From the IMG/VR virus record IMGVR_UViG_3300025759_000001: a DNA stretch of 64,000 bases. One strand, written 5' to 3'. The position numbers and the translations under genes were made by a program. Below are positions 2,074 to 55,940 of the stretch, piece after piece; position 1 is the stretch's first letter, and each line of letters begins with the position of its first letter. The notes beneath the pieces are model-generated. The model was not told where the DNA came from, did not search any database, and was given only the letters and a program-made list of their open reading frames with translations. This DNA comes from an uncultured virus (IMG/VR IMGVR_UViG_3300025759_000001). Its lineage: Duplodnaviria > Heunggongvirae > Uroviricota > Caudoviricetes > Crassvirales.

Positions 2074-5000
2074 TTAATACTCTGTGTAATGAATAGTCAT
2101 GTCATGCAAGACCATACTGTTGCCTGAGGTGTTATCAAATGTAAATTCAATAAAACTCCAAGGGTTTCTTATTCTATCTCTTGATCCAGCATTTCTTGGC
2201 AAGTTAACCTTCCAAGATCTGAATTTCTTAAACATGTTGTCTCTAAGAGCAAGTGCTATTTCACCACTATCCTGATAGTCATTGTACACTCTTACTTTAG
2301 TAAGGCCAGTATTAGGTTGGTCAGATCCAGCACTATTAATCATTTCCATCTTATAAGAAGCATTATTAAACACAACGTCTCTTTCTCCTTGTGGAGAAAC
2401 ATTAAATTCTATTGTAGAAGGATAATGTACACCATAAAAGTGATTCTTAGAGCCTTGGAAGTGCTCCCATATTTGTGTATTAGCAGGATTTGATGTAATC
2501 ATTCGAGCCCCCTTATTTATATACCAGGCTGGAATATAATCATAATAGCTTACAAAACTGCCAGTAGCTTCGTTGTATGCTATTGTAAAGCTTCCTGTTG
2601 ACATTTTCATAGAAAAGTAAACATCATTATTTACACTATTGTATCCTGTTGCAACTCCAAAAGAGTTTACAGCATTGTCTAACACAAGGTCATTGTATAT
2701 CATTGAGTTGTTGAACTCAGCATGAAACCCTTCTTGATCAGATAAGCCTTTAATTTGTCCATTAAACTGTATGATCCCTTTATTAAGGATATCTATGTAA
2801 TAGAATCCTGTTTGTGTAGCAACTACGCCCCATTTATTTAAACATCCGGATTTAGTTGTTACATATTGATAATCATGAAGTATACCACCAACACCAAGCT
2901 CTATCGCAACTCCATCAGCTCCTGAGGTTTGAACTCTAGGGTTTACTGATATATGCGCAACACCTGAATCCTGTAAACAATATATCTCATCATTTGCATT
3001 TACTACGGCGTTTATTGGGCCATATTGACCATCTAGGTCCATAGTTTCATTTTGTAAGAAATCTGTCCAAGAATCTACACTCTCTCCAGGTATTTTTTCT
3101 TTTGACGCCATTAGTCTTGTGTCAAACTCCTGTATCTTTTTAGATTTAAATCCAGTCTCTGAACTCTTAACTAATGAAGGTTGCTGAGAATAAACTCTGT
3201 TATAGCTTTGATACTCTTCGTATCTAGGCTGGTATCTGTTATCCCATTCTGAAAGAGATAAATCATTTCTATTTCTTAAATCTATACTAGATTCTAATTT
3301 AACTGACACTATTTCACATACTCTATTGTAAGCTTGTGATGTCTCTTCAGTATCTTGCTTAGCTATTTTTGTAAATGTAAACGTGTTAACAAAGGTATCT
3401 CCAGGAGATTGAATTAATATAGAATCAGTGGCTATTGGCGTGTAAGTGCCAATACCAATATACGAACTAATAGATTTAGCTTCAAATGTCATACCTCCAT
3501 ATATAGATCCTATATATATTGTATTGTTATCTTTAGCGAATTCAGCCACAAGTATACCATTTGTTTCTGCTATACCTGATGCAGAATGCATGTCTTCAAT
3601 TGGAGTTCTATTTTCTAAATCATATGTATTATCATCAGGACCTTCCATGAATGTAACGCATTTAGCTCCTTCTGATGTAATACCTAATATTTGAATTGCA
3701 TTATCACCACCATTATCTTTAGCGTTATCACTATCTCTAAAATCATCAATTAAATGACTCTTAAGATGATTAGAATACCTTATGTTTGTATCACCATTAT
3801 ATGTAGTAAAGTCTGACCCTTTCTCTGTTACTTCTGGAGTTCCATATAGTTCATATCTACGAGTACCAGTTGCTACACTAAAATCTCCTTTAAACTGCCT
3901 GTACATCTGATGTGTTGCTACATTATGATCGTCATTGGTTGGACCAAAAAATGCCTTATCACTAAGGTATCCAGCATTGCCTTTTATTGTGTTAATTGTA
4001 ACGCCAGGTGAATCGGATGTGAATCCATTTATAAATTTAGCTTCTTGACCATGTACACCACTAGTTGGATTAGTTTCTGTTGACCAATTAGCTGAATAAT
4101 CTTCTTCCATTAGTCCTACAATCTCTAATTCATAAGAAGAGTCAATGCTAATGTCAGTAAATAATATTTCAGGAGAAAACATCTGAAGCAGTCTATTGTG
4201 CTGGAATGTTTGCGCACGCCAATCACTTGAGGCTGCGCCTTTAAATCCTTCTCTATCTCTACCTCTTCCTAAGTCACTAAAAGTAGAATCATTACTATCC
4301 TTCCAAGCTGTCTCATGATAATCTTTACATTTAACAAAAGGAACATTAGTTTGAAAAGTTCTAATAACACTAGGCATTTTATCTGTCTCTGAAGTATTTA
4401 CATCAGTTTTTCTTTCAGAACGATTTGTATGCTTAGTAGTGTGCTGAATATTAGCAACCATTGGGTTTATAATACCTTGAGTAAGTATTGTTTTATCAGT
4501 AATAGTTCTATCAGCCCTTAATACTTTATATCCAGTAGGTATATCGTCCGGAGTATCAAAATTAGATGAAGTATTTAGCCAAACATAGAAGTCAGCTTTT
4601 AAAGTTACTCTAAGCTTATTGTAATTTCCTGATAGATTTCCATCAGGTATTTTAAGATCACACATCCAACTAGGCTCACTCTTTTGGCCACGTCTATTGT
4701 ATAATTGAATTCCTATTCTATATATCTCTCTATCTTTTAAGAATTGCTTATCAAGCGCCTCTGAATCAGTTAAAGTAGATTGATCAACTTCAACTTTAAA
4801 GTACTTTCCTTCTGCGCCTAATGTAGTTCCATCAGATTGATACTTGTAATCATCATAGTCCCTATTAATAGAATCATGTCTTTCTCGAACTAATGTATAA
4901 TCAATAGAAGGTCCATTTATTGGAAGTATATTTCCACTAAGATTATTAGATGTATTTAAGTATATATTTTCCCATACAGACATGTGACCAAATGAATTAT

Positions 5001-44491: not shown

Positions 44492-44849
44492 CTAAAAATT
44501 TCTTTCCATATCTTTCCTCATACATGTCTTCCCATTCAGTAATATGAGTATTATCTAAGTCTGTGTTACCACAATCCACACAGTAAGGCACAATGGCTTT
44601 ATCTTTACTGCTTATTGCTCCATCCTTGGGAAATGAAACTTCTTTAATGTGTAATTTTAAGCATGTCTTACAGTACGTTACTGGGACATTATTGTAATCT
44701 TGTTTTTTAGTTATCATATTTAATAATTTTAAATCATTTATAATGTCAGTATCGTATACTGGAAATGGTGCCATCATATTGGCGTGCTCTCTTCTTTTAA
44801 TTTCTTTGGTTAATTCTTTTTTATCCATAATTATAATTTTATAGCACAT
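44481..44849 (-). CDS. Zn-finger protein conserved in crAss-like phages
   Basis: YNNVPVTYCKTC...YCVDCG...EWEDMY. Confidence 0.65.
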   Translation of the reverse strand: MCYKIIIMDKKELTKEIKRREHANMMAPFPVYDTDIINDLKLLNMITKKQDYNNVPVTYCKTCLKLHIKEVSFPKDGAISSKDKAIVPYCVDCGNTDLDNTHITEWEDMYEERYGKKFLDEK

Positions 44850-46393
44850 CCAGTCGTAAGGATTGTCCCAGCAACTGATGCAGCATTCTCGAGCGCTACT
44901 CTAGTTACTTTCTTAGGATCAATAATACCCATATGCGTCATATTTACATACTTACCATCTTTAGCATCATATCCATTAACTGTTGCATGTATGTTGTTCT
45001 TTATGTTGCTAATAATAACATCGCCACTAACTCCAGCGTTCTCACATATTGTGATTATCGGAGCTTTGCAAGCTTCTTTAAGAAGGTTAATTCCTTTTTG
45101 CTCTGTCTCATGTCTAACATCTTCAATATGATCAATAGCATTAAGCAAAGCAATTCCTCCGCCTGGTACAACACCTTCTTCTAGCGCAGATATCACAGCT
45201 TCTTTTGCATCAATAACTCGATCCATCTTTTCTTTCATTTCTACCTCAGAATTACCTCCAACATAGATTACAGCAATGCCACCAGAAAGTTTTGCTATTC
45301 TATTTTCTAATTGTTTCTTATTGAACTCTGATTTTTCTATTTTGATTTTATCATTTAACTCAGAGACTCTATTTTTGATATCCATCTCTATCCCTTTAGC
45401 TCCAACTATTACAGTACTGTGTTGAGTCACGTTAACTGTATCTGCTTGACCTAAATATGATCCATCAAATTGATCTATGAATTCAGACTTACAAACTATT
45501 GCTCCAGTTTGATATGCCATGTCTTGTAGTATTTCTGCTCTCTGACTACCAAAGCCTGGTGTCTTGACAGCAACAACTTGCACTCCTCCTCGTGTCTTGT
45601 TCATCACCAATGTTGCAAGTGCTTGTCCTTCTATGTCTTCCGCTATTATTAGTAGCGGTCTTCCTGTCTTGGTTACGGCTTCCAGTGTAGGCATAACATC
45701 ATCAACAGCATTTAACTTCCCATCGACCAACATAATATATGGGTCTTTGTAAGTCACTTCCATTGCCTCTGGATTAGTAGAAAAGTAAGGAGAAGTCATT
45801 CCTCTATCGAATTGCATTCCATCAACTACTTCTATGTAAGTATCTTGGCCTTGTCCTTCTTCCACAGAAACTCCACCTTCTTTACCTACTTTCCCAAAGG
45901 CTTCAGCAACTAACTCACCAATGGCTTCATTGTTGTTTGCAGAGATTGTAGCAATTTGTTTAATCATTTCTGAATCTGTATCAACAGGTATAGAAATTGA
46001 ATTGATATATTCAACTGCCTGCTTGACCCCGAAATCTATCCCCTGCTTTAATTCATTAGGATCATATCCAGCCTCTACAAGCTTTAATCCATATTTCATT
46101 ATACACTGCGCTATTACAGTAGCGGTTGTAGTACCATCACCTGATCCTTGTTCTGCTTGCTCAGCAACGTCTTGAATAAGCTGTGCACCCATGCTTTCAA
46201 ACCTGTCAACAAGAGTTATACTCTTAGCAACTGTTACCCCATCTTTAGTTATTATTGGCAGGAAGTCTACTCCTCTATCAATGATAACATTCTTTCCTTT
46301 GGGCCCCAAAGTAATCTTTACTGCATTTGCCAAAGCATCAACACCTTTCTTGATGCTTTGTCTTGCCTCTGTTTCATATTTAATATTCTCCAT
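44831..46393 (-). CDS. groEL: Chaperonin GroEL (phage-encoded)
   Basis: TLGPKGKNV, ITKDGVTVAK, GDGTTTA, GMQFDRG, LLIIAED, RIAKLSGG, VVPGGG, IIDPKKV; lacks the C-terminal GGM tail. Confidence 0.96.
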   Translation of the reverse strand: MENIKYETEARQSIKKGVDALANAVKITLGPKGKNVIIDRGVDFLPIITKDGVTVAKSITLVDRFESMGAQLIQDVAEQAEQGSGDGTTTATVIAQCIMKYGLKLVEAGYDPNELKQGIDFGVKQAVEYINSISIPVDTDSEMIKQIATISANNNEAIGELVAEAFGKVGKEGGVSVEEGQGQDTYIEVVDGMQFDRGMTSPYFSTNPEAMEVTYKDPYIMLVDGKLNAVDDVMPTLEAVTKTGRPLLIIAEDIEGQALATLVMNKTRGGVQVVAVKTPGFGSQRAEILQDMAYQTGAIVCKSEFIDQFDGSYLGQADTVNVTQHSTVIVGAKGIEMDIKNRVSELNDKIKIEKSEFNKKQLENRIAKLSGGIAVIYVGGNSEVEMKEKMDRVIDAKEAVISALEEGVVPGGGIALLNAIDHIEDVRHETEQKGINLLKEACKAPIITICENAGVSGDVIISNIKNNIHATVNGYDAKDGKYVNMTHMGIIDPKKVTRVALENAASVAGTILTTGCAIKL

Positions 46394-46813: not shown

Positions 46814-47045
46814 AATAATCTACTAATTCAAATGAGATCCTCATGTCTTTAACTAAAAATAATGACTCATTTTGTATATCAACAGAATCTACTGCTGTGT
46901 TCCTCTCTAAAAAGAGAACAACCTCATTTAGTGCGTGTGGTTGGATAATAAAAGTAATACTAGTCTCTCCTCTATCCTTTGCATTCCACAATGCCTCTTC
47001 TATCTTGTCTCCGATGTTACTCGTCTGAACTATTCCTACTCTCAT
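46806..47045 (-). CDS. Hypothetical protein
   Basis: 79-aa ORF within the operon. Confidence 0.5.
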   Translation of the reverse strand: MRVGIVQTSNIGDKIEEALWNAKDRGETSITFIIQPHALNEVVLFLERNTAVDSVDIQNESLFLVKDMRISFELVDYYV

Positions 47046-47307
47046 CTAATGTTTCTTTTGTTCCTTGCATTATTGCATTAGCTAATTTGGTTACAGCTGT
47101 TGCAACTTCATCATCCTTAATCACCCCATGATTTAACTTACTTTGCAGTACTTGTTGCAAGAATCTTCTTTGAGTACTACTCAATGAAGAAGCTTTGTGT
47201 GCAATCAATGCATAGTTAGCTAATATTGTCTCATTATCCATGTCTAAGACACGTCTTAGTGATGGTTTGATGCTTAATGATAAGCTTTTTCTTTTATTTT
47301 TCATCAT
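47017..47307 (-). CDS. Hypothetical protein
   Basis: 96 aa; first gene of the GroEL operon; TACTTTTA element 4 nt upstream of the ATG. Confidence 0.55.
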   Translation of the reverse strand: MMKNKRKSLSLSIKPSLRRVLDMDNETILANYALIAHKASSLSSTQRRFLQQVLQSKLNHGVIKDDEVATAVTKLANAIMQGTKETLDESRNSSDE

Positions 47308-47351
47308 TTACTAAAAGTACAAAATATAAATCACACTTCCTAATTAAAACT

Positions 47352-47380
47352 AAAAAATCCCCACATTTCTGTGAGGATCT
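47352..47380 (-). terminator. Rho-independent terminator
   Basis: ATCCTCACA-GAAA-TGTGGGGAT followed by a T-run. Confidence 0.75.
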
Positions 47381-47400
47381 TAATAATAGATTTAAACAAT

Positions 47401-47610
47401 TTATAGCTTGACACCCTTAACGTAGTCAACAATAGCTTTAAAATTCTTAAAAATGAATGCACCAATTAGACCTGCGCCTATATGTGGCCACCCCAATAGC
47501 GCCCATACTCCAACACCACCAGCTAATAGGCCTACGCCATAAAATCCTAGTCCTGTGAAGAAGTTCACTACAACATTAACAACATTTTTAATCTCATTTA
47601 CAATTTCCAT
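47401..47610 (-). CDS. Small Gly-rich membrane protein
   Basis: 69 aa with two hydrophobic GxxxG segments; lies between the structured element and the terminator. Confidence 0.65.
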   Translation of the reverse strand: MEIVNEIKNVVNVVVNFFTGLGFYGVGLLAGGVGVWALLGWPHIGAGLIGAFIFKNFKAIVDYVKGVKL

Positions 47611-47640
47611 AATATATATATATTCTAGTTTTAATTATTA

Positions 47641-47915
47641 GATAGAAAAATCCCTTGGACACGTTGGTATATCGTAACCTGGAGCAGTTTTCTTTACAAT
47701 TTCAATAGAGCAGTGTTACTTGTGCCCAGGACTGATAACATTTGTTAATTCAAAAGGATCCTACTTGTTCCGTATCCAGTCCAACTCTATTATTATATGT
47801 AAAAGGTTTCCAACGAGTTACTATCCTTTGAACCTCAGTTACACGCCTACGCCCTATAATATTCTTAACTTATTAGCTTTAGGCTGATGTAATTCTAACA
47901 CCAGATAGTTTTATT
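47641..47915 (-). ncRNA. Candidate highly structured ncRNA or 5' leader
   Basis: No long ORF; consensus TATGTTTG at 47920-47927 upstream; eight complementary segment pairs, some crossing (see findings). Confidence 0.5.
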
Positions 47916-47959
47916 TATGCAAACATACGATATAAAAACAGTAATTCCAAATATAAGTG

Positions 47960-48142
47960 TCACAAACTTTTGTTATATAAGTCCTCTTTTATTTTCTTTT
48001 CCAAAAGCTTTAATCTATGAACCTCATCTCTATAAGCCATACTTGCTCTACGGGATAGTTCTTTCCACTTAGTTAAGTCACCAGCTTCTTTGGCTTCTTG
48101 CATTTGTTCATTAAAACTTCTCTCAGATTTTTTATTTAGCAT
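47960..48142 (-). CDS. Hypothetical protein
   Basis: 60 aa, helical and charged; TATCTTTA element upstream. Confidence 0.5.
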   Translation of the reverse strand: MLNKKSERSFNEQMQEAKEAGDLTKWKELSRRASMAYRDEVHRLKLLEKKIKEDLYNKSL

Positions 48143-48198
48143 TATTTTTCGTATATTTACTAAAGATACAAAATATAAATGTTAAAAACAATATAAAA

Positions 48199-48435
48199 AT
48201 GGATTTAGATAAAGAATTTAAAAAATTAAATTACGCATTAGATAGTTACGCGTGTAAGCATCATGCTGATTATGAGGAAAATGTAAATGAAGGAAGTGTT
48301 ACTCTTTTGCTATTGGACTCAGGAGAGATGCCAATACTGACCCACAAGGCTGTTTACGGAGAAAACTTTGAATCAGATATTACGGGCTTCAAAAAACAAG
48401 CGATTAAATTTTGTAGCCATGTCAAAGTTTCTTAA
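48199..48435 (+). CDS. Hypothetical protein
   Basis: 78 aa; A-rich leader; TATATTTA at 48152-48159. Confidence 0.55.
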   Translation: MDLDKEFKKLNYALDSYACKHHADYEENVNEGSVTLLLLDSGEMPILTHKAVYGENFESDITGFKKQAIKFCSHVKVS

Positions 48436-48631
48436 AAAGAAAGAATGTAAATTTGATCACACTAAATTTTATAGATTTGTTTACAATGAAATAAGCATAC
48501 TAGTTGAAAAGGAAGTGTTTAAAAAATTTGACTATGAAACAGATAAAGCTCTGATGTTTAGTGGGGGTTCCAAACCTAGTGAGAGTTATAGACTTGAGAT
48601 ATTCGACATAACAAAGCCTACTGAGAAGTAG
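48419..48631 (+). CDS. Hypothetical protein
   Basis: Likely start MSKFLK at 48419; followed by a terminator. Confidence 0.5.
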   Translation: MSKFLKKKECKFDHTKFYRFVYNEISILVEKEVFKKFDYETDKALMFSGGSKPSESYRLEIFDITKPTEK

Positions 48632-55503: not shown

Positions 55504-55578
55504 TTTACGTTCGTCTAGGGGTTAGGACGCTTGCCCTCTTAGAGGCAGGAAACAAGAGTTCGAATCTCTTATGTAAAC
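55504..55578 (+). tRNA. tRNA-like gene with Glu-type body and abnormal anticodon arm (specificity undetermined, possibly pseudo)
   Basis: Acceptor TTTACGT/ATGTAAA, D-arm GTCTAGGGGTTAGGAC, T-arm AAGAG-TTCGAAT-CTCTT; anticodon arm CTTGCC-CTCTTAGA-GGCAGG (8-nt loop). Confidence 0.7.
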
Positions 55579-55940
55579 CTAATTATGCAGATTGGATTTT
55601 CTGTAATTTAGTTGGTTGGTTGGTTGATGAGGTGGAGATGATATCAAAGCCTCATTTTTTTAAGATCTTGATTATACTTTAGTCTAGTGGCTACGACACC
55701 AGCCTGATAAATAATCTATCAGTAACTTAAAAAATTTAGAGTTATTAGAAGCATGGGTTCAAGTACGGTAGCTCGGAGTCTCCGAGTGACCACAATAATG
55801 GGGGCGTTAAATTTCTTTTCCTTATAAAACTTCTATGTAATGTGCTTGATTGTCCCCTCTAAATTTTTAATTATCATATATATAGTGTATATAGTCAACG
55901 AAATTTAAAATATAAATTATAAACAGTAAATAAATAAATT

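Follow-up and report, generated by a model that had tools for sequence, protein, structure and literature searches.

The stretch of DNA analyzed here, 64,000 nucleotides from an uncultured crAss-like phage (Crassvirales; IMG/VR record IMGVR_UViG_3300025759_000001) and called the window throughout this report, almost certainly carries, on the minus strand of its region 47641-47930, the gene for a new structured noncoding RNA of a marine crAss-like phage lineage, as judged from comparative sequence analysis. With more moderate confidence, we propose that this new RNA is also independently transcribed and that it acts in trans. An earlier reading of the window, made from its letters and hereafter termed the sequence-only reading, had described a promoter-driven minus-strand candidate for a new noncoding RNA, with crossing long-range base pairs, and had named a search of Rfam and covariation among homologs as checks; our observations uphold that description, and both checks came out in its favor. 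Several of its particulars needed revision, as noted with the results concerned.

Results

The region is situated between two small minus-strand open reading frames (ORFs), one of 60 aa (47960-48142) and one of 69 aa (47401-47610). The RNA core extends from 47909 to 47644 on the minus strand, or about 270 nt from the 5' strand of a long-range helix, P0, to the 3' strand of a pseudoknot, PK1. As had been observed previously, there is no long ORF in the region; open stretches reach at most 39 aa in the sense direction and 69 aa, stop to stop, in the antisense direction. The earlier claim that the region is richer in GC than its flanks holds with respect to the AT-rich spacers, but not with respect to the neighboring ORF (0.32-0.36 for the region, 0.39 for the ORF). 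The argument from the density of base pairing in the single sequence fails by a criterion that the sequence-only reading had itself set, namely comparison with dinucleotide shuffles: the minus strand has a minimum free energy of -59.1 kcal/mol, against -61.0 +/- 5.2 kcal/mol for the shuffles (z = +0.37, with 56 of 100 folding equally well), and the plus strand gave z = +0.95. The case for an RNA gene is thus one that rests on homologs, and not on the sequence of the window by itself.

We gathered 28 distinct copies of the element, mostly from marine samples, on viral and metagenome contigs of which several are 90-110 kb long. The copies were collected by way of the neighboring GroEL-like gene, by exact-pattern scans of viral contigs and by way of a conserved protein encoded downstream; one scan of metagenome contigs yielded 24 stretches, including a GC-rich false match (L047 in our numbering of loci). 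The structure alignment contains 27 sequences, and the 28th, L093, was added afterwards. The RNA core is 94.0% identical to its counterparts in L004 and L002, the 81%-identical relatives, whereas nucleotide identity in the six flanking genes is 70-81%. This noncoding stretch is therefore the most constrained sequence of its neighborhood, and we take selection to act on the RNA itself.

A covariance model of 264 positions (R1), built from a trimmed alignment, matches the window at 47650-47905 with 235.4 bits (E = 1.4e-64) and recovers all 24 input sequences with scores of 214-311 bits. The RNA is present in one copy per genome, exactly one having been found in a complete genome of 98,436 bp with terminal repeats. 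Among the sequences searched, it is restricted to one phage lineage. The model found no copy in the whole genomes of crAss001 and phi14:2, in 151 Flavobacteriaceae genomes or in the distant GroEL-carrying phage loci L006-L013, and none of the 15 stretches from a pattern scan of the genome_contigs set scored with it. A 25-bit partial match in Flavobacteriaceae had only a 16-nt loop segment in common with the RNA, the rest being absent, and was judged to be chance. Also, blastn of 47000-48500 gave no match to cultured phages, the nearest record (G001, a 30-kb fragment) had no match to the region, and no cultured phage carrying the RNA was found among the sequences searched. The major head protein of the window shares 51% identity with its counterpart in crAss001 and 47% with that in Cellulophaga phage phi14:2 (Steigviridae).

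From 24 sequences, RNAalifold predicted 52 base pairs, of which 19 show compensatory changes. The model was then extended by a 3' hairpin domain and by two long-range helices that came from a search for further covarying segments. In its full form, it comprises 78 pairs in 13 helices and was evaluated on a 27-sequence MAFFT alignment that was not fitted to structure. We observed that 95.3% of the cells in this alignment hold standard pairs, compared with 36.9-47.7% in controls in which partners were slid by 1-3 columns (27 sequences). Double changes occur in 41 pairs, compared with 6-14 in the slid controls and 23.8 +/- 2.5 in shuffles, none of 500 of which reached 41. A similar result was obtained with the 24 sequences and with an alignment fitted to the model, and the late addition, L093, contributes new compensatory haplotypes in helices P8, P9 and P10.

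The strand is fixed as minus because conserved G-U pairs of the model would be A-C on the other strand. Such pairs join alignment positions 151-233 and 159-200 in 27 of 27 sequences, 91-131 in 26 and 49-74 in 25. The sequence-only reading had chosen the same orientation from the pairs at 47657 and 47884, each of which does contain one A-C mismatch on the plus strand that becomes G-U on the minus strand, and its choice is borne out by the conserved G-U pairs and by the conserved promoter. The fold is thus conserved and strand-specific.

These observations bear directly on the alternative that the element is not an RNA gene, but instead a DNA-level signal near the strand-switch point (for packaging, or as an origin of replication), a gene for a small protein or a pattern due to chance. 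In its favor are the location of the element, about 250 bp from a switch in gene orientation and GC skew at about 48.1 kb, the 69-aa antisense stop-to-stop frame in the window, and the folding of the single sequence like its shuffles. However, strand-specific G-U pairs kept in 25-27 of 27 sequences are unfitting for DNA hairpins or for the other strand, 41 pairs are compensatory, no frame is open across the homologs, and both promoter and terminator are conserved. We consider this alternative extremely improbable. The element has no coding potential: a small protein gene was rejected on the grounds that none of the six frames is open in all copies (the longest frames through the invariant core being at most 20 aa in L034 and L040 and at most 23 aa in L037). 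Likewise rejected was a 20-codon sense micro-ORF of the majority clade, the start of which is absent in the window and the residues of which are altered by the compensatory changes.

The RNA is pseudoknotted, with two long-range helices that cross others. All coordinates in the following description refer to the minus strand. The 5' strand of P0, ACUAUCU (47903-47909), pairs with GGAUAGU (47820-47826), crossing P1 and P6. Four complementary haplotypes of P0 were found (ACUAUCU/RGAUAGU, RUUAUUAC/GUAAUAAY, GAUUACUY/GAGUAAUU and AUUGUUGC/GCAACAAU), and 7 of its 8 pairs show double changes. The second crossing helix, PK1, joins AGAA (47862-47865), in the loop of P5, to UUCU (47644-47647) in the 3' tail. 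It occurs as five complementary haplotypes (ACGCA/UGCGU, ACACA/UGUGU, ACAGGAG/CUCCUGU, ACAGAAG/UUUCUGU and AGAA/UUCU), with double changes in 4-5 of 7 pairs; in the window clade, its register is uncertain by one base. Taken jointly, P0 and PK1 are 86.4% paired, as against 29-56% when slid, with double changes in 12 of 15 pairs as against 1-4.

Between these strands, the RNA is organized in domains. Domain A (47839-47892) consists of P2 through P5, and its loop bears the 5' strand of PK1. P2 (47889-47892 with 47839-47842) has double changes in all 4 of its pairs; P3 (47880-47884 with 47845-47849) and P4 (47875-47877 with 47851-47853) make up a single P3/P4 helix with double changes in 3 of 7 pairs; and P5 (47870-47872 with 47857-47859) has them in 2 of 3. 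Paired cells in the helices of domain A amount to 98.8-99.5%. P6 (47803-47836), in which GAGGUU (47831-47836) pairs with AACCUU (47803-47808), encloses the 3' strand of P0 and a loop of variable length. It is near-invariant and 98.1% paired with zero double changes, and covariation speaks neither for nor against it; together, P6 and P0 would form an H-type pseudoknot.

Domain B (47694-47802) contains P7 through P10, additional inner helices and invariant internal loops, and one of its segments, GGAACAAGUA, is identical in all 28 copies. P7 (47798-47802 with 47694-47698) and the P10 hairpin (47751-47753 with 47742-47744) each have one double-change pair. P8 (47784-47791 with 47704-47711) has double changes in 7 of 8 pairs, and the P9 helix (P9, 47776-47782 with 47729-47735) in 3 of 9; the inner helices join 47772-47773 with 47738-47739 and 47769-47771 with 47756-47758. 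In the 3' domain (47652-47683), P11 (UCC, 47681-47683, with GGG, 47652-47654) closes the hairpin P12 (47673-47679 with 47657-47663). This 3' hairpin folds in every homolog despite differing stem sequences, and 9 of its 12 pairs show double changes. Finally, GGUG (47899-47902), the 5' strand of P1, has two possible partners. Nested pairing with ACU (47686-47688) is found in 96.3% of cells and is broken in L016, L049 and L084; the alternative, P1', with CACU (47712-47715), crosses P7 and P8 and, when read with a shift of two columns, is 100% paired (27 of 27 sequences). Neither shows a double change, and either partner is possible. A kissing dimer formed through the palindromic loop AAUU (AAUUAA) was also entertained as a candidate, and was weakened by the finding that this loop reads AAAUAA in L081 and L085.

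All eight complementary pairs named in the sequence-only reading are present where it had placed them. Three of these, AATAGAG/CTCTATT, GGACTG/CAGTCC and GCCTA/TAGGC, correspond to P8, P9 and P3, respectively, and are conserved with compensatory changes. The remaining five (numbers 1, 2, 5, 6 and 8 in its list) were not sustained, being 59.7% paired, with 7 double-change pairs where the slid controls have 3-6. Crossing pairs exist, as that reading had maintained, but they are P0 and PK1 and not the ones that it listed.

As had been pointed out in the sequence-only reading, the RNA is preceded by a promoter box, TATGTTTG (47920-47927, minus strand), which we find to be of the form TAnnTTTG and to lie 20 nt downstream of a -33-like element, TTTG (47948-47951, minus strand). 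The -33 element is present in all 28 copies (TTTG in 18, TTAG in 10), separated from the -7 box by exactly 20 nt though the spacer sequence varies. The -7 box reads TAnnTTTG in 26 of the 28 copies and TAnnTTTA in 2. We take the arrangement TTTG-20 nt-TAnnTTTG to correspond to the Bacteroidetes sigma-A promoter form. The pattern by itself is not rare in the window, which has 7 matches versus 4.0 +/- 2.0 expected. From the position of the -7 box, transcription would be expected to start a few bases beyond it, at about 47912-47916.

In the window, an intrinsic terminator at 47354-47381 (minus strand), with a 12-pair stem and a T run, would end a unit composed of the RNA and the 69-aa ORF. No other terminator-like site was found in 47000-48400, and this one is conserved in L002, L004 and L033. 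Outside the window clade, 20 of 22 copies have an intrinsic terminator of their own, with the T run 67-142 nt past PK1. The two exceptions are L015, in which a weaker hairpin was missed by our script, and L045, the sequence of which ends early. These direct terminators range from -8.6 to -15.3 kcal/mol (-7.8 in L084) and have 6-10 T residues. For the RNA, we estimate a length of about 390 nt in most phages; in the window, where the transcript would include the ORF, the estimate is about 570 nt.

A further conserved element, GUUGUU, is located downstream of the core, at 47578-47583 (minus strand) and hence inside the 69-aa ORF in the window. In 25 of 27 homologs, it is found no more than 120 nt downstream, the others being L015, which is without it, and L045, which ends early. 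Across the homologs, it lies 21-86 nt past the RNA tail, and in most copies the motif is at +21 to +23 and the T run at +74 to +78. A possible pairing partner of GUUGUU is the invariant GAACAA of domain B, neither side of this pairing ever varying, and we infer that GUUGUU belongs to the RNA.

The 69-aa membrane-protein ORF (47401-47610, minus strand) and a terminator follow the RNA in the window, as the sequence-only reading had stated, and the RNA and the ORF are probably cotranscribed there, an arrangement found only in the window clade. That reading had gone on to suggest that the RNA controls the small membrane protein, and the corresponding alternative, a regulator (switch or thermometer) in the 5' untranslated region of this ORF, would agree with the start of the ORF 34 nt past the core (47644 to 47610) and with the shared downstream terminator in the window, L001, L002, L004 and L033. 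However, these 5 sequences are the only ones of 27 in which the ORF is placed between RNA and terminator; it does not follow the RNA in the other 22, and its homologs, recognized by the TTGLGFYGIGLL motif, are upstream of the RNA in 6 of 17 loci examined (L015, L017, L019, L036, L038 and L041). There, they are several hundred bases from the RNA, which ends at its own terminator. Also, the RNA is equally conserved in phages without the adjacent ORF (214-311 bits), and no conserved pairing masks the start region of the ORF. Because it is only in the window clade that the RNA is followed by the ORF, regulation of this ORF is not the conserved function of the RNA, and we regard such a regulator as very unlikely.

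One observation concerns the history of this junction. In L084 (element at 1960-2223), a 19-codon ORF (MNKIAKYIES...), about 28-87 nt downstream of the end of the element, is similar to the N-terminal part (MNKIIDYIKS...) of the 69-aa protein encoded in L004. Possibly, it is what is left of a gene gained or lost at the 3' side of the RNA, which suggests that the junction has been rearranged.

Farther downstream, past the terminator and a second promoter-like motif, the order of genes in a conserved operon is a protein of about 100-125 aa (APSKR...HKGSSLSSTQR), a 79-aa protein, a DUF6171 zinc-ribbon protein and a GroEL-like gene. The first of these is represented in the window by a 96-aa protein (47017-47307, minus strand) with the invariant motif PS..(16)..AL..HK.S.L..QR, and it follows the RNA wherever downstream sequence is present. 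We found no significant Pfam or PHROG family for this protein and nothing credible in a profile search of PDB sequences; its AlphaFold model (pLDDT 78) consists of four helices, and Foldseek gave no match to it at E <= 0.001. A tblastn search of cultured phages with the 125-aa homolog was likewise without a match. Upstream of distant homologs of the 96-aa protein in L086, L088 and L089, no RNA was detectable by the covariance model, the best score being 9.9 bits with filters off. In L089, an 8.4-bit match at 2095-2253 (plus strand) occupies the syntenic spot upstream of the homolog (33% identity); it is like domain A and lacks domain B, and may be a divergent smaller variant or chance. The full-length GroEL-like chaperonin (44831-46393, minus strand; PHROG 5725, E = 5.9e-155) is conserved at a place downstream of the RNA among related phages, and genes for terminase, portal and head proteins are also downstream on the same strand.

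A 21-nt motif, ATATTTTGTAYNTTTAGTAAA, is present twice in the window versus 0.09 expected, at 47307-47327 and 48156-48176 (both minus strand), and each of the two ORFs flanking the RNA gene is directly preceded by one copy. The copy at 47307-47327, which reads ATATTTTGTACTTTTAGTAAA, is promoter-like and lies between the terminator and the operon; it recurs once, before the 60-aa ORF. The motif probably represents a second promoter type, distinct from the TAnnTTTG promoter of the RNA.

The position of the RNA at the head of these genes raises the alternative of a cis-acting leader of the late or structural operon, in which the nascent fold would decide on read-through of the terminator, either by binding a ligand or protein or by processive antitermination. 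Several observations are in accord with it. The RNA heads a long minus-strand block that includes the GroEL-like gene, terminase, portal, major head protein and tail genes. The same operon, starting with the APSKR...HKGSSLSSTQR protein, follows at every locus with enough downstream sequence, and GUUGUU is conserved between RNA and terminator, at a fixed distance in most copies. Such a leader would also resemble lambda PR'-tR' and HK022 put. Yet the terminator stem is outside the conserved fold, from which it is separated by about 45-70 poorly conserved bases, unlike in typical riboswitch expression platforms. The terminators are strong, a separate promoter-like motif intervenes between terminator and operon, the fold far exceeds known antitermination RNAs in size, and a whole ORF intervenes between RNA and terminator in the window clade. 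On balance, we think a cis-acting leader unlikely, but a real possibility nonetheless.

Two further features of the window may be recorded here. Gene orientation and GC skew both switch at about 48100-48200, with the minimum of the cumulative skew at about 48.1 kb; this point is about 250 bp upstream of the RNA promoter and may represent either an origin of replication or a region of divergent promoters. At 55504-55579 (plus strand), ARAGORN reported a 76-nt tRNA with the four-base anticodon 'ctta', and the Rfam scan at gathering thresholds reported no tRNA there; the call could reflect a suppressor-type or otherwise odd tRNA, or could be false.

For comparison with known RNAs, we scanned the 4227 models of Rfam 15, which include tmRNA, RNase P, 6S, SRP, riboswitches, GOLLD, ROOL, HEARO, IMES, Flavo-1 and pRNA. 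The whole window gave no match at gathering thresholds. In E-value mode, 47300-48250 gave 4 matches, all with E >= 2.6 and far below gathering, and seven homolog loci gave 10 weak matches; none of these fell on the element. The statement in the sequence-only reading that no tmRNA, RNase P or group I intron is recognizable agrees with the scan. The RNA family, having a well-supported complex fold without a match in Rfam 15, is novel. Moreover, in Rfam and in the literature searched, we found no structured RNA described for crAss-like phages.

Particular classes were considered individually. A tmRNA was rejected because the 5' end of the RNA pairs with an internal segment (P0) and not with the 3' end; ARAGORN, too, found no tmRNA in the window. 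Group I introns are common in phages, crAss-like phages included, and the present RNA is like them in its size, its several domains and its crossing long-range helices. It differs in having its own promoter and terminator and in interrupting no gene: the promoter is directly upstream in 28 of 28 copies, 20 of 22 have their own terminator, the flanking ORFs are separate complete genes, and there is no Rfam intron match. A guide or partner RNA (the noncoding RNA of a reverse transcriptase, TnpB or IscB omega RNA, CRISPR tracrRNA) was rejected for want of an adjacent partner enzyme. No reverse transcriptase or nuclease family was found among the 27 window proteins scanned, and the neighbors are small ORFs without such domains. 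With regard to riboswitches and cis leaders, the same operon always follows the RNA, as does a terminator, with about 45-70 weakly conserved bases between the fold and the terminator and a promoter-like motif beyond the latter.

Discussion

We favor the following picture of a stand-alone, trans-acting RNA. Host RNA polymerase would transcribe the minus strand from the Bacteroidetes-type promoter, and the core of the transcript would fold into at least 13 helices, among which P2-P5 make up a 5' domain and P7-P10 a central domain, with a hairpin domain at the 3' side. The domains would be tied together by the crossing helices, P0 linking the 5' leader to the loop of P6 and PK1 linking the loop of P5 to the 3' tail. 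In most phages, the RNA's own intrinsic terminator would end it and so release a discrete molecule. In the window clade, the 69-aa ORF would have come between the RNA and the terminator, such that the RNA also forms the 5' portion of the mRNA for this ORF. The three-dimensional fold would be the functional entity, and during infection it may serve as a protein-binding scaffold or decoy, or as a catalytic RNA. Tentatively, and with considerable doubt, we suggest that this is a new class of 'ornate' phage RNA with a biochemical activity of its own, either a ribozyme or a binder of host RNA polymerase or of a host factor for defense or translation, that aids in the takeover of Bacteroidetes cells.

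Several points weigh against this picture. The sequences fall into few clades, so that many double-change cells are inherited and the number of independent events is overstated. P1 and P6 show no covariation, and P1 has a competing partner. Folding of the single window sequence is no better than that of shuffles on either strand, as described above, and we identified neither a binding partner nor a ligand nor a catalytic motif. In addition, the layout, in which promoter, structured RNA and terminator head a same-strand gene block of about 47 kb, also fits a cis leader, and the gene for the protein of about 100-125 aa always follows the RNA where downstream sequence exists, which allows a cis or partner relationship between the two.

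Comparison with systems described for other phages is instructive in this regard. GOLLD and ROOL are large ornate noncoding RNAs of more than 500 nt that are often borne by phages or prophages. The RNA described here is like them in being a large and intricate phage RNA that is recognized by covariation, that has its own transcription unit and that is not tied to a regulated neighbor gene. It differs in having no Rfam match to either, in its size (a core of about 270 nt, or an estimated 390 nt or so with tail and terminator) and in its confinement to one marine Crassvirales lineage. The lambda PR'-tR' '6S' leader and HK022 put share with it a layout in which a strong promoter, followed by a short RNA and its terminator, heads a long late-gene block transcribed by host RNA polymerase. 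In contrast to these, however, the present RNA is several times larger, is pseudoknotted and has a promoter-like motif after its terminator; similarity to them in sequence or structure would not be expected, and no Q-like protein was identified in the present phage. Like phi29 pRNA and other stable phage RNAs of unclear role, such as the T4 species 1 and 2 RNAs, the present RNA is a discrete, structured, phage-encoded RNA other than a tRNA that lies beside morphogenesis genes. It differs from phi29 pRNA in giving no match though Rfam has a pRNA family and in belonging to another phage family with another fold, and we found no evidence that links it to packaging.

Complex-folded RNAs longer than about 200 nt are few in bacteria and phages, and most of them have proved to be ribozymes or cores of ribonucleoprotein machines. 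The scope of the present family is one marine lineage, represented by 28 distinct sequences, and its covariance model can be used for the annotation of marine viromes. The RNA is a defined molecule that can be synthesized, with helices, P0, PK1 and P8 among them, that lend themselves to test. It is carried by crAss-like phages, which are abundant and the gene regulation of which is poorly understood. If it is true that the RNA acts on RNA polymerase, it would constitute an RNA-only switch for late transcription in Crassvirales.

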